A stretch of 48,828 bases of DNA from a virus (Duplodnaviria; Heunggongvirae; Uroviricota; Caudoviricetes), in IMG/VR virus record IMGVR_UViG_3300045988_154803, one strand, 5' to 3'. The position numbers and the translations under genes are program-made. Shown piece after piece: positions 52 through 46,788 of this stretch. Below the pieces are notes generated by a model that saw only the letters and a program-made list of their open reading frames with translations, was not told the DNA's origin and did not search any database. Within the stretch, counting starts at the first letter, position 1; each line of letters opens with the position of its first letter.

Positions 52-109
52 ATATAATTCTATGACACTTGCCAGAGAGCATCATGCAATTGGATACCTC
101 CATTGCACT
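52..109. repeat. Terminal overlap: identical to 48771-48828 (circular contig closure)
   Basis: Direct comparison of the first post-adapter 58 bases with the last 58 bases of the window. Confidence 0.9.
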
Positions 110-647
110 GGTTGCCCCAGCCATGCCAGCCATCAGGTAAATCACCGCGAGCAAACAGCTCAATACGAGGAACATCACCTAACAGCCTTACCAGCTTGTC
201 ACGGACCACATCAGGCTTCCGAGAATGCTCCAGACGAGGCGATGTAAACGACTGAATGATCCCCGCATCAAGACGTGTCGGTAGTTTGCCTTTCACTGCA
301 AACAAGCAATCTTCACTGTTTGCACGAGTCATATGCCCCATCCCCATCACCAGCTTATCTGGTTGTCGGCTACCACATTTGTTCCATGTGAAGCCCTTCA
401 TGGTCATCAGCCTGAATCCCCATGCTTTCACCACCAGCAACGCTTCTTCTGGCTGAGTCGGAACCCACCACATGGCCAACAAACACGATTCAGGATTAGC
501 AAGCTGCCAGACAGGAATACGAGCAATCTCCTCAGCTTTCATCGTTGGATACTTAAAACCAGCGCCACGATTCCCATCCTTACACTTGTCTTTGTATTCC
601 CAGGGGGGATCTGCATAAATCAGATTAAACAATGCAATTGCCTCCAT
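60..647 (-). CDS. MT-A70 family (Dam-like) N6-adenine DNA methyltransferase
   Basis: 195 aa; catalytic DPPW motif in context LIYADPPWEY typical of MT-A70-type adenine methyltransferases. Confidence 0.65.
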   Translation of the reverse strand: MEAIALFNLIYADPPWEYKDKCKDGNRGAGFKYPTMKAEEIARIPVWQLANPESCLLAMWWVPTQPEEALLVVKAWGFRLMTMKGFTWNKCGSRQPDKLVMGMGHMTRANSEDCLFAVKGKLPTRLDAGIIQSFTSPRLEHSRKPDVVRDKLVRLLGDVPRIELFARGDLPDGWHGWGNQCNGGIQLHDALWQVS

Positions 648-955
648 GTTAGTTGTGCCTCCGGCGCTTATCTCCGGCAGTCATAACGCTGGTCAGCCCT
701 ACAGCAAACACAACGAAAAGGGCACTAACCAGACTGATTAATGCCCTTGCCTGTTGTGTGCCGGATATCGCCCGACAACGCTGTTTTGGTAACACGGCTA
801 CAGTTCCGCGCCGCTCCAGCTTTTACCCCTTTGCGGATAACAGGCCCTGCCTGTAACTTAGCCCCACGTTCGCCCGAAATGCGCACCAGGCACGCATAAA
901 GATGAGCACGAAGGAAGTAACTCCACCGCGCTTATCTTTATGTGTGAGAGTGAAT

Positions 956-1200: not shown

Positions 1201-1410
1201 TTACTTGGGGCAGTTGATTTCCCATGCCCTGTTATGAGCCAGAATATCTTTCTTTGTCTGGCGGTCCATAACATCGATATCGTGATCAGTCAGGTAGATG
1301 GGCTTTACCCAATCACAGGCGGTATCAACCACCACCGGGACGCTTCCACGACTCCCGCAGCTCGCGATCAACATCGTCATCAGCCATATGGTTAACACTC
1401 TGCTGTACAT
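1201..1410 (-). CDS. o-spanin (Rz1-like outer-membrane lipoprotein); true start probably internal (MTMLIASCG)
   Basis: Lipobox LIASC followed by short Pro-rich periplasmic segment; overlaps 3' end of the i-spanin in another frame. Confidence 0.55.
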   Translation of the reverse strand: MYSRVLTIWLMTMLIASCGSRGSVPVVVDTACDWVKPIYLTDHDIDVMDRQTKKDILAHNRAWEINCPK

Positions 1411-1603
1411 TCCCCACCTCTTTTGTCACTTCTATACGCCGCTCCGCAGTGGCTTTTACGGCGGCTGCATTCTCATTAATGCGCTGCTTTTCAGCTTCAT
1501 CTTCGGCCTTTTCTCGCCCCTTCATACGACCAAAACCAAATGCGCCGAATGCAACCAATATAATGGTGCCGATAAATGACAAAACGGCTTTCAAACCAGT
1601 CAT
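1325..1603 (-). CDS. i-spanin (Rz-like, N-terminal TM helix plus charged coiled-coil segment)
   Basis: 92 aa; hydrophobic N-terminus IGTIILVAFGAFGF then K/E-rich helix; directly downstream of endolysin. Confidence 0.5.
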   Translation of the reverse strand: MTGLKAVLSFIGTIILVAFGAFGFGRMKGREKAEDEAEKQRINENAAAVKATAERRIEVTKEVGNVQQSVNHMADDDVDRELRESWKRPGGG

Positions 1604-2142
1604 ACCACCACTCGCTCTTTCATCCAGCCATAGACAAACGACTCATTTGCTTCGCGTTTCTCCGCCAGGTCCAGATAACGGTCGCCCTGCGTACAGTTAA
1701 GGGCCGTCAGCATTACCCGTTCGCCGTCTTTTCCCCGATTCCCAAGATAAGCACGTAATGCCGCAATGGTGCGCGGGCCGATTCGCCCATCCACATCCAT
1801 ATCTGGATACAACTTCCCGCCACGGTTGAAAACATTCAGCCAACGTTGAAGCATCTTCGTAGCCACAGTCGGCCCCATGTTGACGCCCGTATCGCACATC
1901 TCAGCCGCAATATCAGGGGAAAATTGCGCCACCTGGTCAAAACGAGGCCCATACCAATAATCACCTTCAAGAATCATCAGAGCCTGTTCTCGCGTCAGAT
2001 CTCGCATATCGCCACGGTATCCGTGAGCACGGGCAGTATTCTGAGTGATGCCCCACATTGTTGGGCCTCCCTTGTCGTCAGGGTGATCAACATAACCGCC
2101 CTCTTTTCCAAGAATGCTGTTAAAAATCTCATCTTTGGTCAT
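1600..2142 (-). CDS. Endolysin, GH108-type muramidase with C-terminal peptidoglycan-binding domain
   Basis: N-terminal GGYVDHPDDKGGPTMWGIT signature of GH108; C-terminal region resembles PG_binding_3. Confidence 0.85.
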   Translation of the reverse strand: MTKDEIFNSILGKEGGYVDHPDDKGGPTMWGITQNTARAHGYRGDMRDLTREQALMILEGDYWYGPRFDQVAQFSPDIAAEMCDTGVNMGPTVATKMLQRWLNVFNRGGKLYPDMDVDGRIGPRTIAALRAYLGNRGKDGERVMLTALNCTQGDRYLDLAEKREANESFVYGWMKERVVV

Positions 2143-2461
2143 GATTAAATCCTAATGCGTCAACTATCCGCGCCAGATTGCCCCTGAAATACAGAACAAC
2201 GATGCAGATAATCAGATTTCCAATAACCACCAGCCAGTGGGATTCTTGATAAAGACCGAACACATAACGGAAGGGAACATTGGCGTATACAATGACGTAG
2301 ATATAAGCCAGAAAGGAAACAAATGGACGATGCCTGGAGTCTTTCCGTCGATAAAGCATCAGCGCCATTACTATTACTGTGCAAAGCACCGCATTAATCA
2401 GTGCTGACGGGTCACTGCTTACCATTTGAACCCCCTCCACGTAAGCGGGAAAGCATTCCAA
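2129..2461 (-). CDS. Lysis-associated membrane protein (holin/antiholin candidate)
   Basis: 110 aa, multiple hydrophobic helices; located between holin candidate and endolysin. Confidence 0.4.
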   Translation of the reverse strand: MECFPAYVEGVQMVSSDPSALINAVLCTVIVMALMLYRRKDSRHRPFVSFLAYIYVIVYANVPFRYVFGLYQESHWLVVIGNLIICIVVLYFRGNLARIVDALGFNHDQR

Positions 2462-2807
2462 AGATGCTACCGAGATCCTGGCTGTTTACGAACGTGAGGA
2501 TTTTAATGGTCAATGCAGCCACAATAACCGCACCAAGCGCATCCAGAGGACGATCGTTGTAGCTGGTCCATTTGGCAAGAAATGAGCCAACTAACGGCGC
2601 TCCAATCACTCCAACAATGAACGATGTAAAGAAATAGCCAATCAGCTTGAGACGGCTAATATTCACCGCTGTAGCAACATAGAAAACAGCGCCAGCAAAT
2701 GCCCCGAATACAACGCCGTAATCAATACCAGTTGCAATACCAAAAACGCTGGCACCCATCAGGCCACCAGCAGCAACGGCCGTACCGGAAATTGGTTCTG
2801 CTGACAT
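2412..2807 (-). CDS. Putative holin
   Basis: 131 aa, Gly/Ala-rich predicted TM helices, first gene of lysis cassette. Confidence 0.5.
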   Translation of the reverse strand: MSAEPISGTAVAAGGLMGASVFGIATGIDYGVVFGAFAGAVFYVATAVNISRLKLIGYFFTSFIVGVIGAPLVGSFLAKWTSYNDRPLDALGAVIVAALTIKILTFVNSQDLGSIFGMLSRLRGGGSNGKQ

Positions 2808-2819: not shown

Positions 2820-2852
2820 TAAAAAAAAAGCCCCGCCGAAAAAGGCAGGGCT
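2820..2852 (-). terminator. Intrinsic terminator (hairpin plus U9 on minus strand) immediately upstream of holin RBS
   Basis: Minus-strand reading gccctgcc-ttttt-cggcggggc followed by nine T; only ~13 nt before holin start. Confidence 0.65.
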
Positions 2853-3193
2853 TCATAAAGCAACAAATTACGCGGTAATCGCTTAACGCAGTTTTACTAC
2901 GTTAAATGAAACACTACACCCAGTTACCATCTAAAACAAGGTTTTCTCATAAAAAAACCTTCAAATCGTGGTTAATCGATCAATAAAAAAACAATACTCA
3001 ACTTTTTGCCAAACGAACATCCCGGCCAGGACTTCCATAATATTCGCCGATATGCCACTGCTTAAGTTGAGTAATCTTCTCCAACTTAACTCCCATAGAG
3101 TCCAGTTTCTGCCATGTTTTCGGTTGTATGTGCTTCATTATCCGCTCTGAATATCTGAATACTGCTCGTAATCGCATGGCTTCTCACTACAGC

Positions 3194-5274: not shown

Positions 5275-5573
5275 TCCTCATCTGCAACGGGGGTGTTTCG
5301 CTCCAGCACCTTGTCCGCATCAGCGATCAGGTTTGCCAGACTATTGTCTGAAATCTTCGTTACCGGAGTCGTTGGTTGCTCAACCTGCCCGATAGGTTTT
5401 ATCGTGCTCAAAAGGAGGCGACGGCGGGAAAGTGGTGCCCCACAACGACGGCCATCTTCCTTGCGATATGTTTCTTTCGGACCAACACACCAGGTTGTCG
5501 GCGTTTCACGCAACTTCACTCTTTTCTCACCATCATTGGTAATGATTATTCCGGTATGGGTTTTGATGCTCAT
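5208..5573 (-). CDS. Hypothetical protein
   Basis: 121-aa ORF; overlaps neighbour in a different frame. Confidence 0.35.
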   Translation of the reverse strand: MSIKTHTGIIITNDGEKRVKLRETPTTWCVGPKETYRKEDGRRCGAPLSRRRLLLSTIKPIGQVEQPTTPVTKISDNSLANLIADADKVLERNTPVADEEWWQDFRAAMLELQERRREELK

Positions 5574-5872
5574 GCCACAGCCCCTCTCAACGGCTTAACT
5601 TTGGCTAATAAGGTGTTAAACAACATGGAGTTAGGATTCATGCCAAATGGCAATTCCGGTTTAGCGGAGTAGTACAGGCAACCATTTATTTTCCTGGTTG
5701 TTATCTGTCCTTCGGCAACCATGCTTCTCAGTCTGCAACGCATAGAGTTCTGCGACACACCAATGTGCTCCGCGATTACGTCCACTTTTGAACATGGGTG
5801 ATCGGTCAGGAAATTAATCACATCTTGGGGGTTAATAATTTTGCGTTTCATTGTCGAGGCGTCCTTATACAT
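5570..5872 (-). CDS. Small winged-helix-like DNA-binding protein (candidate regulator)
   Basis: 100 aa; helix-turn-helix-like VIAEHIGVSQNSMRCRLRSMVAEG; preceded by AT palindrome promoter. Confidence 0.4.
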   Translation of the reverse strand: MYKDASTMKRKIINPQDVINFLTDHPCSKVDVIAEHIGVSQNSMRCRLRSMVAEGQITTRKINGCLYYSAKPELPFGMNPNSMLFNTLLAKVKPLRGAVA

Positions 5873-5897: not shown

Positions 5898-5917
5898 CGG
5901 CGGGAGACGTCCCGCCG
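5898..5917 (-). terminator. Hairpin terminator after DUF3560-like gene
   Basis: cggcggga-gacg-tcccgccg perfect 8-bp stem followed by AT-rich palindromic tract. Confidence 0.45.
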
Positions 5918-5928
5918 TAGGCTTACTG

Positions 5929-6996
5929 TCAGGCTTTCAATAGCGATTCTTTTAGATATCGGGCATCAGCCAGGGCGTTTGGAGTAATCTTGCGAACCCA
6001 TGCATTACGGGTTGGACTCCACTTAAAGGCGCGTGATTTAAGCAGCGAACGAATGTTTGCCTCTGGTTTGCCAGGGAAATAAAACAGGATGCGGTTATCC
6101 TCTGGATCTATCTCCATAGAAAAGCCGTCGTATTCTTCGCGCTGTGCTCCTGTTACAGACTTGACCGATTCAAGCTCCTTAATACGGCTCTGTAGTCGTT
6201 TGATTTCGGCGTTATTGTTGCTCAGTGCGTATGAAGGGAATCCGATGCGCCCACAGAAATCTCCGGCCAGTAACTCTTTGGCTTCGCTTTCTGTAAACCT
6301 GAGATCGATTAATGCAGAAAGCTGCTGTAATTGGTCTTTTTTGTATTTGCGAATGGCCTTATTTGCGGCCTTCATTTTGACGTGTGACTTCATGCAGCCT
6401 TGCAGCTTACGAAGCAACTTAAATAGCGCATCAGGATCATCAGACGAAATTCCATTACGACCAACACCTGCGGCTTTGCTCTCGTAGTGTGATGCTTTAC
6501 TTTCGCATTCAACAAACGCTTTTCTTAATAACGCATCAGCTTTAGACAAACGGCGGCGATGGCCTTTCGCGCTATAATGGTCAACTAAAATCGGCTGGCC
6601 TAACGGGATCACATCCAACAGGTCATGCGCTCGCTTATGCGCTACCGCACCTTCTTTTCTGGCTTTTTCTGCACGAGCAATATATCGGGCAAGACGCGCG
6701 TTCTGGCGTTCCTGATAGGTGTTTACGTAATCATCTCCGCGCTGCTGCTGTTCAAGCCATGCTTTGCGCAGATCTTCTGTTACGTCCACCAGCTCCGCAG
6801 GGATACAACCAGTTTGGGCTTCATAAGAGTAACCATCCTCATAGATGCGCCCATCGTCTTCAACAAAGAAAAAGGTTTCGTGCTCATCGCTTTTGACCAT
6901 ACGACCATTAACATGGCGTAATAGGTAGCCAGTATCAGTGCTTAACAGGCTGTTAGGGTTGTTGATCCAGTCAGAAATAATTTCTTGTTTATTCAT
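5929..6996 (-). CDS. DUF3560-like protein (unknown function; family seen on plasmids)
   Basis: 355 aa; motif GQPILVDHYSAKGHRRR recalled from DUF3560; first gene after leader cassette A. Confidence 0.5.
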   Translation of the reverse strand: MNKQEIISDWINNPNSLLSTDTGYLLRHVNGRMVKSDEHETFFFVEDDGRIYEDGYSYEAQTGCIPAELVDVTEDLRKAWLEQQQRGDDYVNTYQERQNARLARYIARAEKARKEGAVAHKRAHDLLDVIPLGQPILVDHYSAKGHRRRLSKADALLRKAFVECESKASHYESKAAGVGRNGISSDDPDALFKLLRKLQGCMKSHVKMKAANKAIRKYKKDQLQQLSALIDLRFTESEAKELLAGDFCGRIGFPSYALSNNNAEIKRLQSRIKELESVKSVTGAQREEYDGFSMEIDPEDNRILFYFPGKPEANIRSLLKSRAFKWSPTRNAWVRKITPNALADARYLKESLLKA

Positions 6997-7112
6997 CAGA
7001 TTTCTCCGGTTTAACCAGGGCGGGTATCGCTCGGTTTCGGGTATAACCTTAGGAAATTTTTTCCCACCTGTAAAGCGCTTTTTATATAAATCTATAATTA
7101 TATATTTATAGA
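6997..7112 (-). promoter_or_regulatory. Conserved promoter/5' leader cassette, copy A
   Basis: Near-identical to 16461-16580 and 48667-48785; ends at the start codon with GGAG RBS; contains TATAATTATA palindrome. Confidence 0.6.
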
Positions 7113-7165: not shown

Positions 7166-7543
7166 TTACTCTCTTCGCTTTTTCAAATAGTCGACAACAT
7201 ACGCCCTGGCTTTTGCCAGCTTCCGGCGATACTGTCTGAGACTAAGAGAAAGGGCGTGGGCTTTATCAATATGCGGTGCATTTATGTCGAGGCCCCGAAT
7301 CTCCCACGCCCCGTATTCAATTCGGACAACCAGCGCCGCAGTCTCATCAACTACCGTGAGGGCCGTCACCGCTCCCTCGATACTGGTTTCCAGTGAGTCA
7401 TTTGGTGCGCCGCCCCCTCCGGTAAACTGGCAGCGCGTAACCATCATCATTTCTAACATCGACGCGAAACCGCTACGGGCGTTGCAGCCATTGCGCACCC
7501 ACAGCGCCCATAGCTCAAACAAGCTATCCAGATCGCGTCTCAC
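7166..7543 (-). CDS. Possible Q-like antiterminator (Phage_antitermQ-like)
   Basis: 125 aa; N-terminal LFELWALWV resembles LERWGAWA start of small Q-family proteins (recalled); sits immediately upstream of leader cassette A. Confidence 0.4.
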   Translation of the reverse strand: MRRDLDSLFELWALWVRNGCNARSGFASMLEMMMVTRCQFTGGGGAPNDSLETSIEGAVTALTVVDETAALVVRIEYGAWEIRGLDINAPHIDKAHALSLSLRQYRRKLAKARAYVVDYLKKRRE

Positions 7544-7546
7544 TGT

Positions 7547-7879
7547 TCAGATCTCCCGTATCGTGACGGGATAAAGCGCCTCTACCTGCTTTTTCTTCAT
7601 GATGTAGACGTCTGTTCGCACACCTTTAGTGTCGACACAATCAATCGTCCCATCGTCATAAAACACCATGAAATCAAGTTTATAAACGACACCACCTGGC
7701 AGATGAAAAGGCACCTGCATAAGAAACGTCACAACGCGGCCAGCTTTTCTCAGTAGCTTCAGTTCGCAGTAGTAATCAGCCTCTTTTTTGCTATCAAAAG
7801 AGATATCATCGACAACAGTTTTTTTATTGCCGTATTTGCTTTTCCTGGTCGCTGGTTTGCGAAAGCCGGTATATCTCAT
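7547..7879 (-). CDS. DUF1064 family protein (PD-(D/E)XK-like)
   Basis: SKYGNKKTVVDDISFDSKKEADYY signature typical of DUF1064. Confidence 0.6.
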   Translation of the reverse strand: MRYTGFRKPATRKSKYGNKKTVVDDISFDSKKEADYYCELKLLRKAGRVVTFLMQVPFHLPGGVVYKLDFMVFYDDGTIDCVDTKGVRTDVYIMKKKQVEALYPVTIREI

Positions 7880-8280
7880 TTGGTATCCCCTGGTACTTCA
7901 CCAAGACTAAGATCAAACCCAATTTCGTCTTTAACTGACTGCGGCAACAGCTCCCACGTCTGCGCACACAAAAATTCATCGGTGCCATAACGCTCAACAA
8001 AGCGAGCACAATTACTCAGGGGAGGGTGACGAACGGCAATATGCGGAGGCACGCGCCCACCACCAGGCACAACACCGCGATGATGTGGTGCGCACAACCC
8101 AAAGCTATGGAAGTGGCAATTCTCATCAACGCTGCCGTAATCAGGATCGTGATGTAGCTCCGTCCACAGCTCTGGATTATCAATTTCACGGCCATCAATA
8201 ATGCAAGCTATGCAACCCACGTGAGTGAGCACCGCTTGTATATAAAGTTTCTCTTTCTTCGTTGGTGTACGTCCGTTCAT
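7876..8280 (-). CDS. Cys/His-rich protein, possible zinc-binding HNH-like nuclease
   Basis: CIACIIDG ... HH ... DENCHFHSFGLCAPHH. Confidence 0.35.
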   Translation of the reverse strand: MNGRTPTKKEKLYIQAVLTHVGCIACIIDGREIDNPELWTELHHDPDYGSVDENCHFHSFGLCAPHHRGVVPGGGRVPPHIAVRHPPLSNCARFVERYGTDEFLCAQTWELLPQSVKDEIGFDLSLGEVPGDTK

Positions 8281-8513: not shown

Positions 8514-9025
8514 TGATGGCCCCCGTCATTTCTGGTGCTTTTCACCGTGCGGCTTCTTAAAAACCTGCCATCACGAACAACAGACACTTCTCGTTTACCC
8601 AACCTCATTTCACGGCGGTAACATTCAGAAAATGCCTCGTCCGGCATCATATAAATGCGACGCTTCGCCTCCGTATCCAGAAGGGAACGGCTTGGGGTTA
8701 CATATAAAAACGACTCATCAATAGGGACAAAACCACGAGCAAGAATTGCTGGCAGAATGCCAGGAAGAACGCAGAAAACAGCTCCACGATGCAGCAACAT
8801 CTGGTACTCCATGACCTCCGTTATCCCCGTGACTACTGTTACGGTGTCACGTCTGTTACGGCTGGCAACCAGTCGCTGCACACGTCCAATTTTCTGATCT
8901 ACAGATAGATGTTTGCTATCGTTATCAATATGATCGATAACAAACCCTTTAATCGTTTGATCAAGGTAGTGCACCACCTTCGATTGAATCTGGTGATTAT
9001 CACCAAAGAAGGCCAGAATCATCAT
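8510..9025 (-). CDS. Hypothetical early protein
   Basis: 171-aa ORF, operon position downstream of cro-like gene. Confidence 0.4.
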   Translation of the reverse strand: MMILAFFGDNHQIQSKVVHYLDQTIKGFVIDHIDNDSKHLSVDQKIGRVQRLVASRNRRDTVTVVTGITEVMEYQMLLHRGAVFCVLPGILPAILARGFVPIDESFLYVTPSRSLLDTEAKRRIYMMPDEAFSECYRREMRLGKREVSVVRDGRFLRSRTVKSTRNDGGHQ

Positions 9026-9516
9026 TCCTCAAGCCTCCCAAGTGCTGAACGCCGGGCGTTGCTAATCTCCTTATGAATCAGCTCGATATCGCTGGAATCT
9101 TTATTCTTAAACTCCAGCATGGCAATCGCATCACGAACCTCTGAAACGGTTACGTGTGAGTGTTTCCAGCGAGCAATGAATCGCGGACCGCGTAGATTGC
9201 AACGCTCCGCAGGCATCCCCAGCTCAGAGAAAACCGCTTTCAGCCTTGATAAGCAGTTAACAGGGAGATTCCCTTTGATCTTGTTCTGCCGAACCGATGT
9301 GCCATCGCTACGCTGGCGCTGACGTTCGGCAAAATCTGCCGCCCATTGCTGGACGTTAATCCGGCCTTCCGAATACGCCACCAGCAGCGTCAGGTTATCC
9401 GCACGAGGGAATCTCTCGAAGCGATACCAGGCACCAATCAGTGATGACGTAAAGCCAAACTTTCTGGCAACACCAATTTGGCCTCCATTCTCGTCAACCC
9501 ACTCCTGAAAGGTCAT
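9022..9516 (-). CDS. Cro/YdaS-like HTH regulator (N-terminal domain) with C-terminal extension
   Basis: GGQIGVARKFGFTSSLIGAWYRFERFP resembles YdaS/Cro-type HTH; divergent from CI across operator cluster. Confidence 0.5.
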   Translation of the reverse strand: MTFQEWVDENGGQIGVARKFGFTSSLIGAWYRFERFPRADNLTLLVAYSEGRINVQQWAADFAERQRQRSDGTSVRQNKIKGNLPVNCLSRLKAVFSELGMPAERCNLRGPRFIARWKHSHVTVSEVRDAIAMLEFKNKDSSDIELIHKEISNARRSALGRLEE

Positions 9517-9689: not shown

Positions 9690-10346
9690 ATGAAAAGCAA
9701 CGACGAGAACATCAAGAAAGAAATAGGTCTGCGCATTCAGACTCTACGGAAACAATCCGGCATGACTGCCGGAGATCTCCAGCAAGTCACTGGAATAGGC
9801 TTAAGCACCTTGCAGAACTATGAGGCCGGATTAAGACAACCATCTATACCTGCCATCAAGAAAATCGCGCACGCCCTGAAAGCATCAGCGCCTTATATCG
9901 CGTGCTTAACAGATAACCCGTTCCCACCCCAGAATACTAACGCTCCTGTTATTCCTGGGCTTGTAGCTATAAAAAATGACATAGCATCGCACGCCGGAGA
10001 AAAGCCAGTGCTGGCGATAGAACAGGAGATTCTACGAAGCAAGAACATCAACCCATCGTCTCTGTCAGTTCTCCAGAGCAACGATGAGTTAATGTCACCA
10101 ACAATATCCCCAGGCTCCCAAGTCCTGATTAATACAGACGATACAGAGATTCATGAGGGGATCTATGCCCTTGAAGACAGAAATGGCCCGGTTGTTTTGA
10201 GGCACTGTAGAGTCATACCGGGTGACAATGCTGTTATGCTGTCAACCGAAAGGGATGCTGAAATGAACACTAAGCATCTGAATAACGAGGAATTTAAGCG
10301 TTATAAAGTTCTGGGCCGCGTAGTTAGTGTTGTCAACTGGTTATGA
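9690..10346 (+). CDS. CI-like phage repressor (XRE HTH + S24/LexA-like C-terminal domain)
   Basis: N-terminal IGLRIQTLRKQSGMTAGDLQQVTGIGLSTLQNYEAG; C-terminal domain alignable to S24 fold. Confidence 0.8.
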   Translation: MKSNDENIKKEIGLRIQTLRKQSGMTAGDLQQVTGIGLSTLQNYEAGLRQPSIPAIKKIAHALKASAPYIACLTDNPFPPQNTNAPVIPGLVAIKNDIASHAGEKPVLAIEQEILRSKNINPSSLSVLQSNDELMSPTISPGSQVLINTDDTEIHEGIYALEDRNGPVVLRHCRVIPGDNAVMLSTERDAEMNTKHLNNEEFKRYKVLGRVVSVVNWL

Positions 10347-10948: not shown

Positions 10949-11617
10949 ATGGAGTCTCGACAAATGACTATCTCTGTAGGTATTTTCAACGGAAAAGGCG
11001 GCGTAACCAAATCAACAATTGCCCGTGCTTTAGCAGTTGCTTATGCAAAGGCTGGCTGGAATGTATGCCTGATCGATATGGATGTGCTTAACGGAACGGT
11101 AACGCGTTGGGTACAACGCAGAATGGCCAACAATATCGAACCAGCAATCGCGGCGCAGCCGTGCGGCACACCATCACAAGTCCAGAAAATCATCGAATCA
11201 GAAGTATACGACCTGGTTATCGTTGATGGCGGTGCCTACGCATCTGAATCAGTACCGAAGCTCTCTGAATTTCTGGATATGGTTATTTTGCCAACCAGAT
11301 TCTCTACCGATGACCTGGAAACCACCGTTAACACAGCTCACGGCATCGTTAAAAAGGGTGTACCAATCAAGAAAATTTGCATGGTGTTTTCCGGCGCGGC
11401 TGAAAACGAAGCTGACTATATTGAAGCCCAAGAGTACCTGGCTAATACGCCATACTTTGTTGTCGATAAGTACATTCCCCACAAGCCAGCTCTGAGCAAA
11501 GCTCAGGATAAGGGCTTAAGCCTCATTGAGTGCTCATACGTTGCGCCACGCAAAAAGGCAGACGACGTTATTCAGGGGATTATCAACCAGCTTGAGGCTC
11601 TGACTACTGCCGCGTAA
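10949..11617 (+). CDS. parA: ParA-family partition ATPase (small, type Ib-like); likely start at 10964
   Basis: Deviant Walker A GKGGVTKST; ~217 aa without N-terminal HTH. Confidence 0.85.
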   Translation: MESRQMTISVGIFNGKGGVTKSTIARALAVAYAKAGWNVCLIDMDVLNGTVTRWVQRRMANNIEPAIAAQPCGTPSQVQKIIESEVYDLVIVDGGAYASESVPKLSEFLDMVILPTRFSTDDLETTVNTAHGIVKKGVPIKKICMVFSGAAENEADYIEAQEYLANTPYFVVDKYIPHKPALSKAQDKGLSLIECSYVAPRKKADDVIQGIINQLEALTTAA

Positions 11618-11660: not shown

Positions 11661-11909
11661 ATGGCCGCACCATCAAAACCACCAAAGAAGAACAGCAAAG
11701 GCGTACCGCCATCGATCGAACAACCGCAGGTTTTCGACCCGACTGAAACGCCAACCAGAACCAAATCAGGTGGGGCACAAATGGCGTTTAACGTCGACCC
11801 TGAATTTAAACGCGAGTACAAAACGTTCGCCAGCTCAATGGATATGTCATTGAAAGAAGTGCTGACAAAATCTTTTGAGTTACTCAAGGCTCAATACAAC
11901 CAGAAGTAA
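11661..11909 (+). CDS. Small ribbon-helix-helix-like protein, ParG-like centromere-binding partner
   Basis: 82 aa; basic disordered N-terminus then AFNVDPEFKREYKTFASSMDMSLKEVL pattern. Confidence 0.55.
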   Translation: MAAPSKPPKKNSKGVPPSIEQPQVFDPTETPTRTKSGGAQMAFNVDPEFKREYKTFASSMDMSLKEVLTKSFELLKAQYNQK

Positions 11910-13037: not shown

Positions 13038-13229
13038 ATGACAAACTTACCCCATGACTATTACGTCAACCTCGTAAAGATCCTTCTCAAGAAAGCCTCA
13101 TACGCCGATAAACTCCGCCTGGCTGAAATCATCGAGCGCGAAGCTATGCGCATCGCCAGCAACGATAACGCTGTTTCTGACGCAAAAATCTCCCTCGTAA
13201 CCAAAGTAGTTATGGGAGGTACAAAATGA
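13038..13229 (+). CDS. Small protein upstream of antirepressor
   Basis: 63-aa ORF with stop/start overlap (ATGA) to antirepressor. Confidence 0.4.
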   Translation: MTNLPHDYYVNLVKILLKKASYADKLRLAEIIEREAMRIASNDNAVSDAKISLVTKVVMGGTK

Positions 13230-14368
13230 AAACGCTTCCGACCGTTAACACCCTACAGCCTATCCTGCATAACCAGATCCCCGTTATCACTAGTGAACTT
13301 CTGGCGCAGTTATACGGAACAAAAATCAAAAACATTTCTGATAACTTTCTGAACAACACGACGCGATTCATAGCCGGAAAGCATTACTTTAAAATTGAAA
13401 AAAACGAATTACGCGAGTTCAAGAACAGACCTGAAACAATCGGGTTAGTTGGTAAAAATGCCCGCTCCCTAATTCTCTGGACCGAACACGGAGCAGCCCG
13501 TCACGCCAAAATGCTCGAAACCGATCAGGCTTGGGATGTGTTCGAAAAACTGGAAGACTGCTATTTCAACCAGAACGCACAAACGGCCGCGACCGTAACC
13601 GTCTCACCAAACAATGCTCGTGAGGTTGTCGATACGCTCAACGCCAAACCGATGTTTTACATTAAAGTGTGCAACAACGAGCCACTCACAACCTCAGCCG
13701 ATGTTGCCCAGGCATTCAGCACCACAAACAATTCCATCGTTATGGCCATCGATGCGTTACGCATTCCTCGCACAGCTGCGGCGCGTCATTTCTTTAAAGA
13801 GCAACGACCGTTGGAAGGAAGCGACCGCGAAATAACAATCTATCGCATGACAAAAGACGGATTTACCTTGCTCATGGAAAGTATCGACGGTCCAGGCGTG
13901 AAGGATATCAAGCTGGCCTACATTGAAGCCTTTAACGCTATCAGCAGCGTGTTAAAAACACAGTACGAGCGCGATCTGGCTAAACGACTGTACCAGGAAA
14001 AAACGATTATCCGCGCGGCAACAGAGCATAATCGGCTATTAACGGAACCGAACTACAGGAAGGAACTAATCAAGGAGTTTGACAAGGCAACAGGGAAAAC
14101 CAAAGCGGCGCTAAGTCTGCCAGCAATGACTCAGGAAAATGTGATATCAGCCTTACTTCTTGATCTGCTCAGAAACGCCAGAGCACTTATCAGCTTTGAC
14201 GAAAACCTGAATCCTCAGCTCAAGCTACTACCACCGACAGGCAAAGTAGTCGACCAGGCTGATCACAACAGCATACTCAGCGTACTGGATGCAAACCTGC
14301 CAGCCAGGACACTACAGGATCTGATAAAAACATGTGCTGATAAGCTGGCACAGAAAAGCAGACCATAA
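13226..14368 (+). CDS. ant: Antirepressor-like protein (ORF6N/KilA-N-type N-terminal domain + Rha-like domain)
   Basis: N-terminal IPVITSELLAQLYGTKIKNISDNFLNNTTRFIAGKHYF; central PLTTSADVAQAFSTTNNSIVMAIDAL. Confidence 0.7.
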   Translation: MKTLPTVNTLQPILHNQIPVITSELLAQLYGTKIKNISDNFLNNTTRFIAGKHYFKIEKNELREFKNRPETIGLVGKNARSLILWTEHGAARHAKMLETDQAWDVFEKLEDCYFNQNAQTAATVTVSPNNAREVVDTLNAKPMFYIKVCNNEPLTTSADVAQAFSTTNNSIVMAIDALRIPRTAAARHFFKEQRPLEGSDREITIYRMTKDGFTLLMESIDGPGVKDIKLAYIEAFNAISSVLKTQYERDLAKRLYQEKTIIRAATEHNRLLTEPNYRKELIKEFDKATGKTKAALSLPAMTQENVISALLLDLLRNARALISFDENLNPQLKLLPPTGKVVDQADHNSILSVLDANLPARTLQDLIKTCADKLAQKSRP

Positions 14369-15176: not shown

Positions 15177-15449
15177 TCATTTGATCCCTTGTTCCAATTC
15201 TGCCGACACTTTAACCTTTTCCCATACAAGGGTTTGCAGCCTTAACAGAATCGCATCTTTATCAAGGTGTGAAAGATCCTTAACCATATCGTCAAACGAC
15301 AGAACGCGAATGGCCATCTCAATGACCCTCGGCGGCTCCCCCTTCTCATATCGCTTATATGTAGCCAACGATATCCCAAACTCTTCGGCTGCTCGCTCCT
15401 GCGTCCAGTTCATCCCACGACGCCATAATTTCAATTCGTAACCCGTCAT
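15177..15449 (-). CDS. XRE-family HTH transcriptional regulator
   Basis: LKLWRRGMNWTQERAAEEFGISLATYKRYEKG. Confidence 0.6.
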   Translation of the reverse strand: MTGYELKLWRRGMNWTQERAAEEFGISLATYKRYEKGEPPRVIEMAIRVLSFDDMVKDLSHLDKDAILLRLQTLVWEKVKVSAELEQGIK

Positions 15450-16079: not shown

Positions 16080-16460
16080 TTACTTAACGAGGAATAAAAA
16101 TGGTTTATTGTTCGGCGGTGTAATCGGGGCTGGCTCGCTTTTGCTCATGCGATCAGTGTACCAGGCCAACTCCTTGTCAAAGTAAGCCTGATTAAAATAG
16201 GCCATGAATGTAGTTTCAAATCCATAACGACCGCTAATACGCAGCATCTGATTGCCGTTCTCTGTTTCCAGATATACCTGGGCACGTTCCTGATTCTCCT
16301 TCAGCCAGGTTAAAGCCTCATCGCATGAGGACACACGATACTCATCATCGTAGCAGTCATCGATGCGGCTTGAGGAAGAACGGCAAATCACGCCAACAGA
16401 ACCAGCCAGGATAGTTTGAATTTTAAGGAAAGCGTTTTTGCGGATTTTAATCATGCTCAT
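16080..16460 (-). CDS. Hypothetical protein (first gene after leader cassette B)
   Basis: 126-aa ORF starting exactly at end of conserved leader. Confidence 0.5.
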   Translation of the reverse strand: MSMIKIRKNAFLKIQTILAGSVGVICRSSSSRIDDCYDDEYRVSSCDEALTWLKENQERAQVYLETENGNQMLRISGRYGFETTFMAYFNQAYFDKELAWYTDRMSKSEPAPITPPNNKPFLFLVK

Positions 16461-16580
16461 CGGGTTATCTCCGGTTTAACCAGGGCGGGTATCGCTCGGT
16501 TTCGGGTATAACCTTAGGAATTTTTTTCCCACCTGTAAAGCACTTTTTATATAAATATATAATTATATAATTCTATGAGC
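16461..16580 (-). promoter_or_regulatory. Conserved promoter/5' leader cassette, copy B
   Basis: Near-identical to copies A and C; palindrome TATATAATTATATA at 16556-16569. Confidence 0.6.
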
Positions 16581-16623: not shown

Positions 16624-16923
16624 TCAGATGTTAAACGCTATTCGTTTTCCTGTGGGAAGCTCAACATCCAGGCTTAATTTGCCTCCCATAGCTTCAACGT
16701 AACGCTTTAATGTCGCCAGCTTTAAATCATTTCCGCGCTGCTCCAGCTTTGTTACTGCTGGCTGGCTTATACCCATCGCCTCAGCAACCTGTTTTTGTGA
16801 TAACTGGAGTTCTTCACGCATCATCTGCAAGCCGACCTCAAGAATCATCTCATCTGCCATTTCTTTAATTCGCGCCTGGCTTTCCGGTGAACGGCTGGCA
16901 ATCGCCTCATCTAATGTTCTCAT
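16624..16923 (-). CDS. higA: HigA-like XRE HTH antitoxin
   Basis: QKQVAEAMGISQPAVTKLE HTH; immediately downstream of and overlapping toxin gene. Confidence 0.65.
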   Translation of the reverse strand: MRTLDEAIASRSPESQARIKEMADEMILEVGLQMMREELQLSQKQVAEAMGISQPAVTKLEQRGNDLKLATLKRYVEAMGGKLSLDVELPTGKRIAFNI

Positions 16924-17276
16924 TACTTGCTCTCCAGTGTGTTCAGATGTGCTGCAAACTCATCCTCAGCTATACGCACCAGTTTTTCATAAAACCGCTT
17001 ATCGTTACTTTTGTCTCCTGCACAAAGAACGATGGCCCGGCGAATCGGATCGAACGCATAAAAGGCTCTTATCGGACGGCCAGAAAACTGAACGCGAAGC
17101 TCTTTCATATTTTTGTACCGAGAACCTTTTACGGTATCGGCATATGGCCTGGGTAACTCAGGTCCGTAAACCTGTAGCTTTTTCAAATCAGCCAAAACCT
17201 TTTCCTGAAGAGCGTCTTCTTGCTCATTTAGCCAGTCGTCAAATCGCTGGCTAAAAAGTACCGTCCACATGCTCAA
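16923..17276 (-). CDS. higB: HigB-like RelE/ParE-superfamily toxin (Gp49-like)
   Basis: 117 aa; toxin-first arrangement with HTH antitoxin; sequence pattern recalled from Gp49/HigB family. Confidence 0.65.
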   Translation of the reverse strand: MSMWTVLFSQRFDDWLNEQEDALQEKVLADLKKLQVYGPELPRPYADTVKGSRYKNMKELRVQFSGRPIRAFYAFDPIRRAIVLCAGDKSNDKRFYEKLVRIAEDEFAAHLNTLESK

Positions 17277-17514: not shown

Positions 17515-17805
17515 CTATTTTTGTGACTTTACTCCTGGCATATGGACTTCCCAGCGACGAATCCCCATAGCTGCGCAAAAATCAGCCACATAATTCAATC
17601 CCGCCCATTCGCGGATACCACCACGGGCTTTTTCAATGAAAACGGCAATCCCTTTTTTATTGAGAGCAAAAAGCCGCCAGCTTTTTGTCACTTCGTCCTG
17701 GGTAGCCACAACACAAGTGAAAGCTCCCATGCGATACAGGTCCAAGAACTCTTTGCGTGTTTTGCGTACAAGTTCCATAACAAACCTCATATTTGCATGT
17801 TTCAA
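17515..17805 (-). CDS. Hypothetical protein
   Basis: 96-aa ORF adjacent to origin region. Confidence 0.35.
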   Translation of the reverse strand: MKHANMRFVMELVRKTRKEFLDLYRMGAFTCVVATQDEVTKSWRLFALNKKGIAVFIEKARGGIREWAGLNYVADFCAAMGIRRWEVHMPGVKSQK

Positions 17806-18101
17806 ACATCTGTTTTGTTATCAATGAAGATTAACCCTAACCCAGCGAAGTAACACAGCAGCGCCCAGGCTGCATACGGAATGCTGGATCTGGATGTGGA
17901 CTCCTTTAACATCTGCCAGTTGCGAACATTGCGACTATCTTTTAAGCCTAGTTTTTTGGCCAACTGCGAGCCGCTCATTCCGGTCAGGCCAATGACTGCC
18001 CGAACTTCTCCACATGTAGGAGATTCCCATTCATCCGCTTTTTTTAAACAAGCCGGATTCAACATTTTTAAAACAGTATCTTTATCCATAACCATCTCCA
18101 T
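17802..18101 (-). CDS. Hypothetical protein with HTH-like segment and hydrophobic C-terminus
   Basis: VIGLTGMSGSQLAKKLGL; C-terminal AAWALLCYFAGLGLIFI. Confidence 0.35.
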   Translation of the reverse strand: MEMVMDKDTVLKMLNPACLKKADEWESPTCGEVRAVIGLTGMSGSQLAKKLGLKDSRNVRNWQMLKESTSRSSIPYAAWALLCYFAGLGLIFIDNKTDV

Positions 18102-18732
18102 TTATTATATCTACGATGGTAGGAAATCTTTTCCTATGTGGCAATAGAAATTTACTACATTGCGTATAAGACAAGTTTTCTATGTCTAATAGGAAATGAT
18201 GTTTCTTACGTTTTGTCGCGTTCTGATGGCTACTGTGTGCGTATTTATCGACGTTTATTGATAAGGCCCGCCCCTTCCTCCTGCAAAGCTCGGCCGTAGG
18301 CCTTATTTCGGCCTTATATAAATTGATTTTGTATAGTTCGAAACGCGCCGTTTCGAAAAGGATGATCAGGCTGCTCCATGCCTCCGGCAAGTGCCGGAGG
18401 AGGTATATTTGAGCGTAGCGACTCGAACCGGCGCGAGCTTTAGCTCGCTGCAAGGGCGAACATATTCACAGGCAAAGCCTGCGTAAGTTAAATAAAGAAA
18501 GTCTTAATAAAAGAAAGTGATTTTGCATTTATTTGTTTAGTGCATCTATTATAAAAAACCATTTGCATATACATATCAAAACTGTGGATAACTTTATTAG
18601 CCGATGCCTGTAAAGACGATATTTTTGCTGTGTTCAGGTTTAGAGAAAATTAATTTAGACTATTTTTTGAACAGATATTTTATTGCGACGTAGATAATCC
18701 TCCGGTAAAACCGGATTCATCATTCAGGTGGG
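18102..18732. other. Candidate plasmid replication origin (AT-rich, DnaA box, GC hairpins) downstream of repA
   Basis: DnaA box TGTGGATAA at 18583-18591; hairpins cgaaacg-cgc-cgtttcg, ctccggca-agt-gccggag, gcgagc-ttta-gctcgc; no credible ORF. Confidence 0.5.
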
Positions 18733-19894: not shown

Positions 19895-20449
19895 TCAATG
19901 ATTCCCAGCCGGAAACCTGCGGTAAAGCGTGGATAAGGTAACATCGAAGATAATCGCTATCCGCTTACGTGAAACACCATTCGCAATAAGCCTTCCGATC
20001 TGTTCCCATTGCTCTGGTGCCAATTTTGAGCGGCGTCCTCCTATCCTGCCGTTAGCCCTTGCCACCGCCAATCCTGCACGCGTTCTTTCAATCATATTTT
20101 CCCGCTCCATCTCTGCGACTGCACTCAGCATCGTGTAGGCAAAGCGGCCAATTGAAGTGCTAATTTTTATCCCTTCCGTAATCGAAATAAACTCAATGTT
20201 GTTTGATAAAAAATGGTTAAGTAAATCAACAAGATGAATCAGAGAACGCCCCATTCGGTCCAGCTTCCAGACAATAACCGTATCGCCCGGCCGTAACACC
20301 TTAAGTAGCTTATCAAGTCCTGGTCGTTTTGATTTAGCACCGGATATTTTATCTTCAAAAATCTGGTCACATCCTGAACTCCTGAGCGCCTCCAGTTGTA
20401 ATTCCAAATTCTGGTCAAAAGTTGACACCCTCGCATAACCATATTGCAT
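19895..20449 (-). CDS. Gin/Hin/Cin/Pin-family serine DNA invertase
   Basis: 184 aa; YARVSTFDQ catalytic Ser motif, WKLDRMGRS, C-terminal HTH; alignable along full length to Mu Gin as recalled. Confidence 0.95.
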   Translation of the reverse strand: MQYGYARVSTFDQNLELQLEALRSSGCDQIFEDKISGAKSKRPGLDKLLKVLRPGDTVIVWKLDRMGRSLIHLVDLLNHFLSNNIEFISITEGIKISTSIGRFAYTMLSAVAEMERENMIERTRAGLAVARANGRIGGRRSKLAPEQWEQIGRLIANGVSRKRIAIIFDVTLSTLYRRFPAGNH

Positions 20450-20563: not shown

Positions 20564-21400
20564 GTGCAAAAAAATGGCGATACCTTGTCCGGTGGACTTA
20601 CTTTTGAAAACGACTCAATCCTTGCCTGGATTCGAAATACTGACTGGGCAAAGATTGGATTTAAAAATGATGCCGACAGCGATACTGATTCATATATGTG
20701 GTTTGAAACAGGTGACAACGGCAATGAATATTTCAAATGGAGAAGCCGCCAGAGTACCACAACAAAAGACCTGATGACGCTGAAATGGGATGCACTAAAT
20801 ATTCTTGTTAATGCCGTCATTAATGGCTGTCTTGGAGTTGGTACGACGAATGCACTAGGTGGTAGCTCTATTGTCCTTGGTGATAATGATACCGGATTTA
20901 AACAGAATGGAGACGGTATTCTTGATGTTTATGCTAACAGTCAGCGTGTATTCCGTTTTCAGAATGGAGTGGCTATTGCTTTTAAAAATATTCAGGTAGG
21001 GGATAGTAAAAAGTTCTCGCTATCCAGCTCTAACACATCCACGAAGAATATTACCTTTAATTTATGGGGTGCTTCCAACCGTCCAGTGGTTGCAGAGTTA
21101 GGCGATGAGTCCGGATGGCATTTCTATAGCCAGCGAAATACAGATAACTCGGTAATATTTGCTGTTAATGGTCAGATGCAACCCAGCAACTGGGGGAATT
21201 TTGATTCCCGCTATGTGAAAGATGTTCGCCTGGGTACGCGAGTTGTTCAATTGATGGCGCGAGGTGGTCGTTATGAAAAAGCCGGACACACGATTACCGG
21301 ATTAAGAATCATTGGTGAAGTAGATGGCGATGATGAAGCCATCTTCAGGCCGATACAAAAGTACATCAATGGCACATGGTATAACGTTGCGCAGGTGTAA
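20564..21400 (+). CDS. Alternative tail-fibre C-terminal variable domain (promoterless; fused to constant N-terminus after inversion)
   Basis: Frame open from crossover site; C-terminus ...RPIQKYINGTWYNVAQV parallels expressed fibre C-terminus ...RPIQYCINGTWYNAGSI. Confidence 0.75.
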   Translation: MQKNGDTLSGGLTFENDSILAWIRNTDWAKIGFKNDADSDTDSYMWFETGDNGNEYFKWRSRQSTTTKDLMTLKWDALNILVNAVINGCLGVGTTNALGGSSIVLGDNDTGFKQNGDGILDVYANSQRVFRFQNGVAIAFKNIQVGDSKKFSLSSSNTSTKNITFNLWGASNRPVVAELGDESGWHFYSQRNTDNSVIFAVNGQMQPSNWGNFDSRYVKDVRLGTRVVQLMARGGRYEKAGHTITGLRIIGEVDGDDEAIFRPIQKYINGTWYNVAQV

Positions 21401-21403
21401 GTT

Positions 21404-21931
21404 ATGCAGCATTTAAAGAACATTAAGTCAGGTAATCCAAAAACAAAAGAACAATATCAGCTAACAAAGAATTTTGATGTTATCTGGTTATGGTCCGAAG
21501 ACGGTAAAAACTGGTATGAGGAAGTAAATAACTTTCAGGACGACACCATAAAGATTGTATACGACGAAAATAATATTATTGCCGCCATCACCAAAGATGC
21601 CTCCACGCTTAACCCTGAAGGTTTTAGCGTTGTCGAGGTTCCTGATATTACCGCCAACCGACGTGCTGATGACTCAGGTAAATGGATGTTTAAGGATGGT
21701 GCTGTGATTAAGCGGATTTATACGGCTGACGAACAGCAACAACAGGCCGAATCACAAAAGGCCGCGTTGATTTCCGAAGCTGAATCAGTCATCCAGCCGC
21801 TGGAACGCGCTGTCAGGCTGAATATGGCAACAGACGAGGAACGCACACGACTGGAAGCATGGGAACGCTACAGCGTTCTGGTCAGCCGTGTGGATACGGC
21901 AAATCCTGAATGGCCACAAAAGCCTGAATAA
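21404..21931 (+). CDS. Tail fibre assembly chaperone (alternative orientation)
   Basis: Paralog of 21960-22493 product ([22 protein letters not shown] vs [22 protein letters not shown]). Confidence 0.75.
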
Positions 21932-21959: not shown

Positions 21960-22493
21960 TCATTCTGGTTGTTCTGGAAACGTTACTGGCAGGCTGGAGG
22001 TGTCTGTGGATTCGACCTTCTGCGCATAGAGCATCCACTCGGTTAATTTTTGTTTATTCTCGTTGGAAATGATACCCAGCCGTAGCTGTGAGTCCCATAG
22101 CTGGGTTTTATCCCTGACGAGCTGTAGCAGGCTTTGCTTTTCATTTTCCGCTTGTTGCCTCTGCTCTTCCTCGGTATAAGTTCGCTTTATCACTACGCCA
22201 TCTTTGAACAACCATTTCCCCGAAATATCAGCCCGGCGATTTGCTGTAATATCAGGTAATTCAACGACGCTTGCGCCTTCCGGATTAATTGCTGAAACAT
22301 CCTTTTCAATACAAATAATAACGCCGTTATGGTCATAGACCATTTTCAAAGTGTCTGGCTGGAAATTCTTTTGTTCCTCATACCAGTTTTTTCCATCATC
22401 TGAATAAAGCCATTTGATGTTAAATTGCTTTGTTAGCTGGTATTGCTCTTTTGTTTTAGGGTTGCCAGCAGTAATGTTTTTTAAGTGCATCAT
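21960..22493 (-). CDS. Tail fibre assembly chaperone (currently expressed orientation)
   Basis: Immediately downstream of tail fibre gene; Tfa-like sequence. Confidence 0.8.
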   Translation of the reverse strand: MMHLKNITAGNPKTKEQYQLTKQFNIKWLYSDDGKNWYEEQKNFQPDTLKMVYDHNGVIICIEKDVSAINPEGASVVELPDITANRRADISGKWLFKDGVVIKRTYTEEEQRQQAENEKQSLLQLVRDKTQLWDSQLRLGIISNENKQKLTEWMLYAQKVESTDTSSLPVTFPEQPE

Positions 22494-22495
22494 CG

Positions 22496-42092: not shown

Positions 42093-42653
42093 TTATTCTT
42101 CCTGCTTAATAAATCGGGATTCCTGGAGCGCCTGAAGCGCAAAATTAATCTCGTCTTCAATAATGCGTTCGATCTCCCTGGCTGTTTTGCCTTCACAACG
42201 GGGAGCTGCTCTTGGAGCAATACTAAATAAGCGGCTACGCAATTCATTAGCTGCCAGAAATGCATCATCCCTGACCGCATCTTTAGCGATGAGAGAGCCT
42301 TCCTTTTCTTCAAATTCAAGGCGTTTCAGCTTTGCCTGATAAATTTTTTCTGCGGTCTTAGCCTTGTTGAATTGCACCGCAACACCGGAAGTACCACCAG
42401 CTAATCCGGCATCATCAGCGGGTAACTCTGGTTGTTCCGAAGATATCCCATGCCCTCTTTTTCCATTTTCAGCAGATACCTCACGACCAACCTGTCGGCT
42501 CGCTTCATAAGCCGCACTGGCTTTATCAAAATCCAGCTTGCCGCTTTTCAGCACTGGAATGCGACCGGAACGACAGAGCTTCGTAACCATTGCCGGAGAA
42601 ATACCTTTCCGGCGAGCAAACTCTGACTTACTGACGATGGCCATTACTTGCAA
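42093..42653 (-). CDS. Terminase small subunit (N-terminal HTH)
   Basis: 186 aa; MAIVSKSEFARRKGISPAMVTKLCRSGRI HTH; upstream of large subunit. Confidence 0.6.
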   Translation of the reverse strand: MQVMAIVSKSEFARRKGISPAMVTKLCRSGRIPVLKSGKLDFDKASAAYEASRQVGREVSAENGKRGHGISSEQPELPADDAGLAGGTSGVAVQFNKAKTAEKIYQAKLKRLEFEEKEGSLIAKDAVRDDAFLAANELRSRLFSIAPRAAPRCEGKTAREIERIIEDEINFALQALQESRFIKQEE

Positions 42654-46695: not shown

Positions 46696-46766
46696 TGAGG
46701 CAGCTTTGGTTTGCGCATTATCGCAGCCCCTGGTAAGCACAAGAGCTGCTGTAATGCTAAAAAAAC

Positions 46767-46788
46767 AAAACCACCCGCAGGTGGTTTT
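46767..46788. terminator. Bidirectional intrinsic terminator
   Basis: aaaccacc-cgca-ggtggttt with T-runs on both strands. Confidence 0.6.

Follow-up and report, generated by a model that had tools for sequence, protein, structure and literature searches.

The closest described counterpart of the gene studied here is that for Q21, the antiterminator of the lambdoid siphovirus phage 21, a protein of 162 aa (PF06530, Phage_antitermQ or DUF1133; PDB 6P18, 6P19, 6JNX). The Q21 torus is formed by the linker between helices H1 and H2, by H2 and by the H2-H3 linker, with a shift of 19-40 A on loading, and H3 contacts the dock of RNA polymerase (RNAP) in the manner of sigma region 4 (bioRxiv 10.1101/651190). 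Gene transfer agents (GTAs) also encode small proteins that are sigma-4-like and Q21-like and were recognised largely from their predicted structure; they are likened here by description, not by sequence: GafZ of the Caulobacter GTA has its binding site, a near-perfect palindrome, between -35 and -10 and lets downstream terminators be bypassed (PMC11150451), and BrrG of the Bartonella GTA has been validated as a processive antiterminator (bioRxiv 10.1101/2024.11.20.624540), a precedent for the experimental validation of remote Q21-like calls. We analysed a phage-plasmid genome of the Caudoviricetes (IMG/VR record IMGVR_UViG_3300045988_154803; 48,828 nt, the whole of which is called the window), and within it a gene for a 125-aa protein that a sequence-only reading had proposed as a Q-type antiterminator. 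This Q-like gene is best described as coding for a compact, divergent Q21-type factor, so far unannotated in the public records examined; we consider homology of the protein to Q21 to be probable, with good confidence, and its function as an antiterminator to be favoured, with moderate confidence.

Relationship of the 125-aa protein to Q21

The reading frame is a genuine gene: it is coding and conserved, with a 99%-identical 125-aa protein as the representative of a cluster with 336 member sequences, and the codon changes relative to the related loci compared with the window (labelled L003 to L028) are mostly synonymous (46 synonymous vs 10 nonsynonymous differences to L017, 39 vs 14 to L018 and 37 vs 17 to L006). 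The family profile matches about 130 representative clusters (50% identity), nearly all of them full-length and 110-150 aa long, and the gene has no annotation other than 'hypothetical protein' in the records examined, those of the three close Yersinia phages and of PLSDB plasmids.

The relationship to Q21 is seen with the wider family. Among PDB sequences, a profile of 112 family representatives (alignment A3) had Q21 (6jnx/6p18) as its sole significant match (E 2.6e-5, profile 4-91 aligning with Q21 11-95); a single-sequence search with the 125-aa protein matched nothing there, and the profile of a narrow family alignment (A1) gave a weak Tc3 helix-turn-helix (HTH) match only. Comparison of A3 by hhalign with a Q21-family alignment (23 members, all with PF06530, and Q21 taken from the phage 21 record) returned a probability of 95.8% (E 8e-9, 78 columns; window residues 2-78 corresponding to Q21 12-89), and A1 gave the identical register (E 6.5e-4). 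PF06530 was matched, weakly, by 10/112 relatives (best E 1e-4), and the two families annotated as 'anti-termination protein Q-like' by 20/112 (PHROG 79) and 5/112 (PHROG 943); all 112 belong to PHROG 5285 (unknown function), in which the PHROGs scan also placed the 125-aa protein. A second homologue search with A3 yielded almost no additional proteins. The Q-type call is borne out by the wider-family profile, by hhalign and by the fold, and not by a direct match of the 125-aa protein itself. The N-terminal motif behind the call is confirmed: LFELWALWV of the window pairs with LELWGAWV of Q21, and the two tryptophans are (nearly) invariant in the window family and in the Q21 family.

In the AlphaFold model of the protein (pLDDT 77), three elements of the Q21 fold are recognised, namely the N-terminal LELWxxW helix (helix 1), a counterpart of the mobile, torus-forming segment and a sigma-region-4-like domain (Table 1). 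The top four Foldseek matches in the PDB were all Q21, which is the best full-length structural match, and searching BFVD by fold gave small phage proteins, most of them without a name. The low-confidence segment of the model (residues 23-46) matches the H1-H2-H3 linker region of Q21, and the most conserved stretch of the family, GFASMLEMMMVTRCQFSGGGGxPxD, is poorly modelled and corresponds to the mobile Q21 torus segment; the Q21-aligned part of the protein comprises the N-terminal module plus H3/H4. A role as extracytoplasmic function (ECF) sigma factor was rejected, as superposition on region 4 is confined to the C-terminal 67-77 residues, the N-terminal part aligns with Q21 and not with region 2, and 125 aa is too short. 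AlpA of Pseudomonas aeruginosa (PDB 7XYB) had a structural score far below that of Q21, and no sequence relationship to it was detected.

It could be argued that only an ancient fold is shared with Q21 and that the role is an unrelated one, for instance as an anti-sigma factor or sigma competitor at the beta-flap or dock, or as a plasmid-maintenance regulator; the identity to Q21 of ~22%, the lack of a direct model match and the frequency of the family in phage-plasmids with their own Rep and Par functions are in line with this. The profile-profile match covers the Q-specific N-terminal part and not the HTH alone, however, and the position in a lytic early-right operon beside recombination/nin-like genes is conserved, and we consider this explanation very improbable.

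With regard to other families, the NCBIfam scan gave a single weak full-length match, to the PA0613 family (NF051483, 21.3 bits, E 2.5e-4), which is also matched by 58/112 relatives (best E 6.7e-9). With a curated cut-off of 100 bits the protein is not a member, and PA0613 is regarded as a related family of similar size, positioned upstream of a lysis gene: PA0613 itself adjoins the holin of the R/F-pyocin cluster in P. aeruginosa. A literature search found no published function of PA0613 and no pyocin antiterminator. The weak, consistent link hints that the pyocin cluster may use the same type of factor, and PA0613 may be a Q21-like antiterminator.

Candidate loading promoters and terminators

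A unit of ~122 nt occurs in three copies in the window (6992-7113, 16457-16578 and 48663-48784), which we call cassettes c7k, c16k and c48k. On the minus strand each consists, in this order, of an array of 8-bp repeats, an A-tract, -35 TTTACA, 3 nt, the palindrome GGGAAA-AAA-TTTCCT, -10 TAAGGT, a leader of ~45 nt, a ribosome-binding site (RBS) and an ATG. Comparison with the relatives shows that the cassette contains a promoter, with the dyad as a separate element. A fourth promoter has a perfect palindrome in the same register, without an array (Table 1). This palindrome, 15 bp of the general form AGGAAA-N3-TTTCCT, fills the spacer between -35 and -10 at about -26 to -12, the register of the Q-binding element (QBE) of phage 21, which spans -27 to -12 in pR' and consists of two tandem 8-bp repeats (ATTGAGCA-AATGAGCA). 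The c48k cassette spans the genome junction and heads an operon leading into the packaging and head genes, c16k drives a 126-aa gene (16080..16460) and has an array (16539-16586) and a terminator (16609-16587) just upstream, and the fourth promoter sits upstream of a 99-aa gene (17802..18101).

The architecture of promoter and palindrome is conserved in the relatives, and perfect AGG-N9-CCT palindromes number 1-4 per locus vs ~0.1 expected. The lineage of L003, L019-L022 and L027 has TTGCnn, 3 nt, AGGACT-AAA-AGTCCT and -10 TATTAT, L006, L017 and L018 have AGGAAA-ATA-TTTCCT with TATGGT, L026 has AGGTC-AAAAA-GACCT with TATGGT, and L007 has AGGGGA-TTT-TCCCCT as its sole dyad in 18.8 kb, upstream of the gene preceding two tandem terminators and the lysis cluster. 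The inner half-site varies with the lineage (AGGAAA, AGGACT, AGGGGA or AGGTC(A)), and the recognition helix of the HTH also varies among lineages (SLRQYRRK, SLRTYKRK, SLGQYRRK, SLRTYKRR); with four to five lineages only, this variation is compatible with co-variation of helix and half-site and does not demonstrate it. The promoter lies 92 nt downstream of the Q-like gene in the window, and within ~450 nt in L006 and L026; in L017, L018, L004, L023 and L028 the gene has no such promoter close behind it.

Two further elements of the cassettes were considered and rejected. TAAGGT resembles the sigma-dependent pause element of phage 21 (TAAGCT) and is the -10 box, because the relatives have TATTAT or TATGGT there, 17 bp after the -35; within the leader, ATACCCG..ATACCCG forms a direct repeat for which the L006/L017/L018 subgroup shows no conservation, and it was not retained as a QBE. 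Leaders of the AGGACT-type cassettes (L003 60-110; L019-L022) contain GGCCGGAC-N5-GTCAAGGCC, of which the stem is conserved and the 5-nt loop varies by copy (ACAAC, ATAGT, GCACC, ACATC), a possible RNA or DNA hairpin element.

Intrinsic terminators lie between the candidate loading promoters and the late and lysis genes (Table 1). Terminators upstream of the lysis cluster are also present in L003, L004, L006 and L007 (two in tandem in L007), and the gap from terminator to start codon is at most ~25 nt in the window, L003 and L007, ~55 nt in L006 and several hundred nt in L004. Where the gap is as short as ~25 nt there is no room for a promoter, which means that transcription has to arrive at the lysis genes by read-through; these genes are the likely downstream beneficiaries of it. 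As in phage 21, the Q-like gene ends a delayed-early operon after nin/recombination-type genes and terminators precede the lysis genes. A Q21-type identity gives a testable model of late-gene control for these elements with terminators directly ahead of their lysis genes.

We favour, by a modest degree, the reading of the protein as a compact, divergent antiterminator of the Q21/Q82 type (PF06530 superfamily), made in the early-right operon and loading at the palindrome promoters. It would be made late in the cI-controlled early-right operon, its sigma-region-4-like HTH would bind promoter DNA, and the N-terminal helix and the flexible segment would then engage RNAP's RNA-exit channel. The modified RNAP would read through the terminators before holin and endolysin and along the ~34-kb minus-strand late region, with the four palindrome promoters as the likeliest loading sites. 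Palindrome binding, RNAP loading and antitermination are each steps that we infer. The Q-like gene does lie far from the structural genes, as had been noted: the holin start is 4.4 kb downstream, and the first head/packaging genes are ~12.6 kb downstream by coordinate arithmetic on the circular map.

The arrangement of the promoters is also reminiscent of Lpa (gp10) of the plasmid-prophage myovirus P1, where a target promoter immediately follows the regulator gene and an inverted repeat with its centre near -22 is common to several dispersed late promoters. Lpa acts jointly with SspA to activate initiation, the P1 late promoters lack a -35, and hhalign gave a probability of 0.1%, by which Lpa was rejected as a homologue; it is a functional analogue. 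The 125-aa protein could likewise regulate initiation, with its sigma-region-4-like domain binding the spacer palindrome as repressor or activator of the four promoters and not travelling with RNAP. We hold this to be unlikely, since its N-terminal 80 residues align specifically with helix 1 and the torus segment of Q21, which a plain DNA-binding regulator would not need, since the protein has no homology to Lpa, and since the terminators abutting the holin gene need some mechanism of read-through. The MarR-like protein encoded at 5570..5872 was also considered as an Lpa relative and is unrelated.

Several points weigh against a Q21-type antiterminator loading at the palindromes. A Pfam scan (E<=1) with the 125-aa protein alone matched neither PF06530 nor any other antiterminator model, the Lambda Q family (PF03589) included, and the Mu Mor/C activator model (PF08765) was not matched either. 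Q21 has an HT[loop]H (loop 105-121) and a C-terminal tail (residues ~126-162; the C-terminal ~35, including six that contact RNAP alphaI/beta), whereas the HTH here is uninterrupted and neither loop nor tail has a counterpart in the 125-aa protein; if the reading is true, such a minimal architecture helps to tell the essential parts of Q21 from the rest. The repeat is inverted in the candidate site and direct in the Q21 QBE, and there are three to four candidate sites vs one in phage 21 and a single target promoter each for GafZ and BrrG, GafZ moreover having GafY, IHF and Nus factors as partners. A convincing sigma-dependent pause element (-10-like, TAnnnT) is not seen behind the promoters: at about +12 to +17 (start-site numbering is predicted) stands GATACC in the window, without the T at the last position that GATAGT or CATAGT provide in some relatives. 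L004 has no such dyad in 18.5 kb, and in L017, L018, L004, L023, L026 and L028 the next open reading frame (ORF) abuts the Q-like gene, with no cassette directly downstream. The palindrome could instead bind the cro-like protein, the MarR-like protein or the XRE protein of 15177..15449, and the non-homology of Lpa, the analogue with dispersed promoters, is a further weak point. A last difference from Q21 is that of the host element, a myovirus phage-plasmid here.

The sequence-only reading, whose interpretation is supported in part, had suggested the leader cassettes as likely targets, which would make an unusual multi-site Q regulon. Judged from sequence, this idea is plausible: the three near-identical cassettes and the fourth promoter share a palindrome at the position of the phage 21 QBE, and within the cassettes the dyad is the better candidate for a Q site than the array, which a ParG-like protein explains better (see below). 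Only tentatively, and with less than even confidence, do we take the dyad-bearing promoters as the loading sites.

AT-rich arrays and the probable partition genes

Eight intergenic AT-rich arrays of 8-bp repeats, of the TTATATAA/TTATAGAT type, were found in the genome (Table 1). Three of these bracket parA (10949..11617, plus strand) and the following gene for an 82-aa protein (11661..11909, plus strand), which combines a basic tail with the pattern G-G-K-x-L-x-F-N-V-D-P-E-F..Y-K-T-F-A and which we take to be of the ParG/omega ribbon-helix-helix type, a reading that no model match supports. In the relatives, arrays are found at equivalent positions, such as ahead of parA, and at many more intergenic ones (in most intergenic regions of the L004/L007/L023/L024 lineages), and the array unit and the presumed beta-strand of the corresponding 82-98-aa protein both change between lineages. 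Partition proteins that double as global regulators are ParG of TP228, omega of pSM19035 and KorB of RK2. By analogy, the arrays are probably operator/centromere sites of the ParG-like protein rather than Q sites, and the partition protein looks like a global regulator of the phage-plasmid comparable to omega and KorB. The cassettes therefore appear to combine two control elements, array and dyad.

A Q-type antiterminator could also load elsewhere, either at a single classical late promoter in the 386-nt non-coding region ahead of the holin (2808-3193) or at the arrays. The QBE of phage 21 is, like the arrays, built of tandem 8-bp repeats; in the window, L003, L020, L021 and L027 an array directly follows the Q-like gene, L003 has one ~20 nt before the pre-holin terminator, and the pre-lysis region with its hairpins and strong terminator resembles pR'-tR'. 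We nevertheless regard loading elsewhere as distinctly unlikely, and the arrays as QBE are retained as no more than a minor alternative, since their occurrence follows the ParA/ParG-like operon, which they flank and lie within; they mark most intergenic regions in the L004/L007/L023/L024 lineages, the variation of the ParG-like beta-strand with the array unit fits binding of the ParG/omega type, and no clear promoter or repeat was identified in 2855-3193. The pre-holin region (minus strand) contains two hairpins, one of them with an 8-bp stem (AAGGTTTT..AAAACCTT), besides the strong terminator, and could be a short leader or a small RNA like lambda 6S RNA; ATTAACCACGATTTGAAG within it is similar to a stretch of the L004 pre-late region. 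The motif ACGATTTGAAG, also shared with L004, occurs once in the window, which is not above chance, and was discarded.

A more far-reaching possibility, which we rate as doubtful, is that a stripped-down Q21-type factor loads as a dimer on the palindromes of three to four dispersed, near-identical promoters, as a multi-promoter Q regulon in a widespread enterobacterial phage-plasmid family, with the same promoters gated by the partition-protein arrays so that maintenance and lytic switch are coupled. If such a regulon is true, Q-type control would reach beyond a single late promoter to a promoter present in several copies, and PA0613 would be an overlooked antiterminator of the R/F-pyocin cluster.

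The phage-plasmid and its gene order

The ends of the window are identical (52-109 = 48771-48828), and from the overlap of 1-109 with 48720-48828 the window holds one complete genome, circular or circularly permuted and ~48,719 bp long, with a further 109 nt as overlap. Over the 5 kb tested it is 99.9% identical to Yersinia phage vB_YpM_39, nearly all genes of which are annotated as 'hypothetical'. The element is also found as a non-mobilizable plasmid of 48-52 kb, with 184 PLSDB records (Escherichia, Salmonella, Klebsiella) matching the region of the Q-like gene. The window encodes a ParA ATPase and relatives carry IncFII RepA or Rep3, which together with the occurrence as plasmid identifies the element as a phage-plasmid with a myovirus-type structural module.

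The Q-like gene is the last of the minus-strand series of the cro-like gene, two small genes, the Ref-like gene and the DUF1064 gene, an order that recurs in the relatives at 50-90% identity, and its position is that of Q after the nin region in phage 21. The placement of its Shine-Dalgarno sequence inside the DUF1064 gene indicates translational coupling in the early-right operon. Downstream of the Q-like gene the minus strand carries further early/middle genes and then the 386-nt non-coding region. Among the proteins scanned, no second antiterminator-like protein was seen, many ORFs being without assignment.

Table 1. Features of the window with their coordinates; residue numbers refer to the 125-aa protein.
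Feature	Position	Strand	Remarks
Q21-like gene	7166..7543	minus	125 aa, GTG start
Helix 1	residues 5-17		contains LFELWALWV
Conserved flexible segment	residues ~18-49		homologous to Q21 torus
Sigma-region-4-like domain	residues 50-124		four helices, plain HTH
Shine-Dalgarno GGGAGA	7552-7557	minus	8 nt before GTG start, within 3' end of DUF1064 gene
DUF1064 resolvase-like gene	7547..7879	minus	directly before Q-like gene
Ref-like nuclease	7876..8280	minus	
cro-like gene	9022..9516	minus	followed by two small genes
S24-type repressor	9690..10346		divergent from early-right series
DUF3560 gene	5929..6996	minus	ATG at 6996, behind cassette c7k
c7k promoter	7046..7074	minus	-35 TTTACA 7074-7069, 17-bp spacer, -10 TAAGGT 7051-7046
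c7k palindrome GGGAAA-AAA-TTTCCT	7065-7051	minus	15 bp, fills spacer; last T is first -10 base
c7k leader	6997..7045	minus	conserved, C-rich, with RBS; ends at DUF3560 ATG
c48k promoter	48717..48745	minus	-35, palindrome (48736-48722) and -10 as in c7k; array 48745-48790 before it
c16k promoter	16511..16539	minus	palindrome with one extra mismatch (GGGAAAAAAATTCC, 16530-16517)
Fourth promoter	18116..18144	minus	TTGCCA-17-TACCAT; perfect AGGAAA-AGA-TTTCCT (18135-18121), same register, without array
Lysis cluster	1325..2807	minus	holin 2412..2807 (PF16931), endolysin 1600..2142 (GH108 + PG_binding_3)
Strong intrinsic terminator	2827..2854	minus	11-bp stem, U9; U-run ends 13 nt before holin ATG (2807)
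Intrinsic terminator	718..748	minus	after tRNA-Met, between lysis genes and c48k operon
Strong intrinsic terminator	48155..48178	minus	~540 nt downstream of c48k promoter, after two small ORFs
Strong intrinsic terminator	46765..46790	minus	second between c48k promoter and ParB-like, terminase and head genes
GC-rich hairpin ACGGCGGGACGTCTCCCGCCGT	5905..5926	minus	after DUF3560 gene; array 5857-5902 directly follows; possibly a weak terminator
Array	1162-1209		
Array	5857-5902		
Array	7075-7119	minus	at c7k
Array	10836-10881		
Array	10909-10948		
Array	11617-11656		
Array	16539-16586		
Array	48745-48790		

With regard to the lysis genes, a tRNA-Met gene (959-1031, minus strand) is located just downstream of them, with an array before it and the terminator 748-718 after it; tRNA genes likewise adjoin the late promoter region in phage 21. 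A HigB/HigA-type toxin-antitoxin pair (16624..17276, minus strand) adjoins cassette c16k. Dyads of the type ACCAC-N5-GTGGT are present in the cI/cro intergenic region (9535-9549, 9638-9652), after the repressor gene (10389-10403) and near an invertase gene (19750-19764), and are probably operators of the S24 repressor. Besides this cI-like repressor there is a P1/P7 immI-type (c4-icd-ant) immunity module, in which isrK-like and C4 antisense RNAs (Rfam; 12799-12872 and 12897-12984, plus strand) are located upstream of a small ORF (13038..13229, plus strand) followed by an ORF6N/Rha antirepressor-like gene (13226..14368, plus strand). A full-length match to the ryfA RNA family (138 bits; 12132-12427, minus strand) falls in the accessory region that separates the par genes from the antirepressor.

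Finally, the c48k promoter region and the terminase genes are separated by a segment rich in methylases, which precedes the packaging genes, with two ParB-N-like genes (42644..43234 and 45901..46524), a ParB-N/methyltransferase fusion (44528..45907) and an MT-A70 methylase (60..647), all on the minus strand. The Hin/Cin-type invertase gene (19895..20449, minus strand) is found beside opposed tail-fibre-like ORFs (20564..21931 on the plus and 21960..24814 on the minus strand) which are separated by a bidirectional terminator (21937-21957), an arrangement that suggests an invertible host-range segment.

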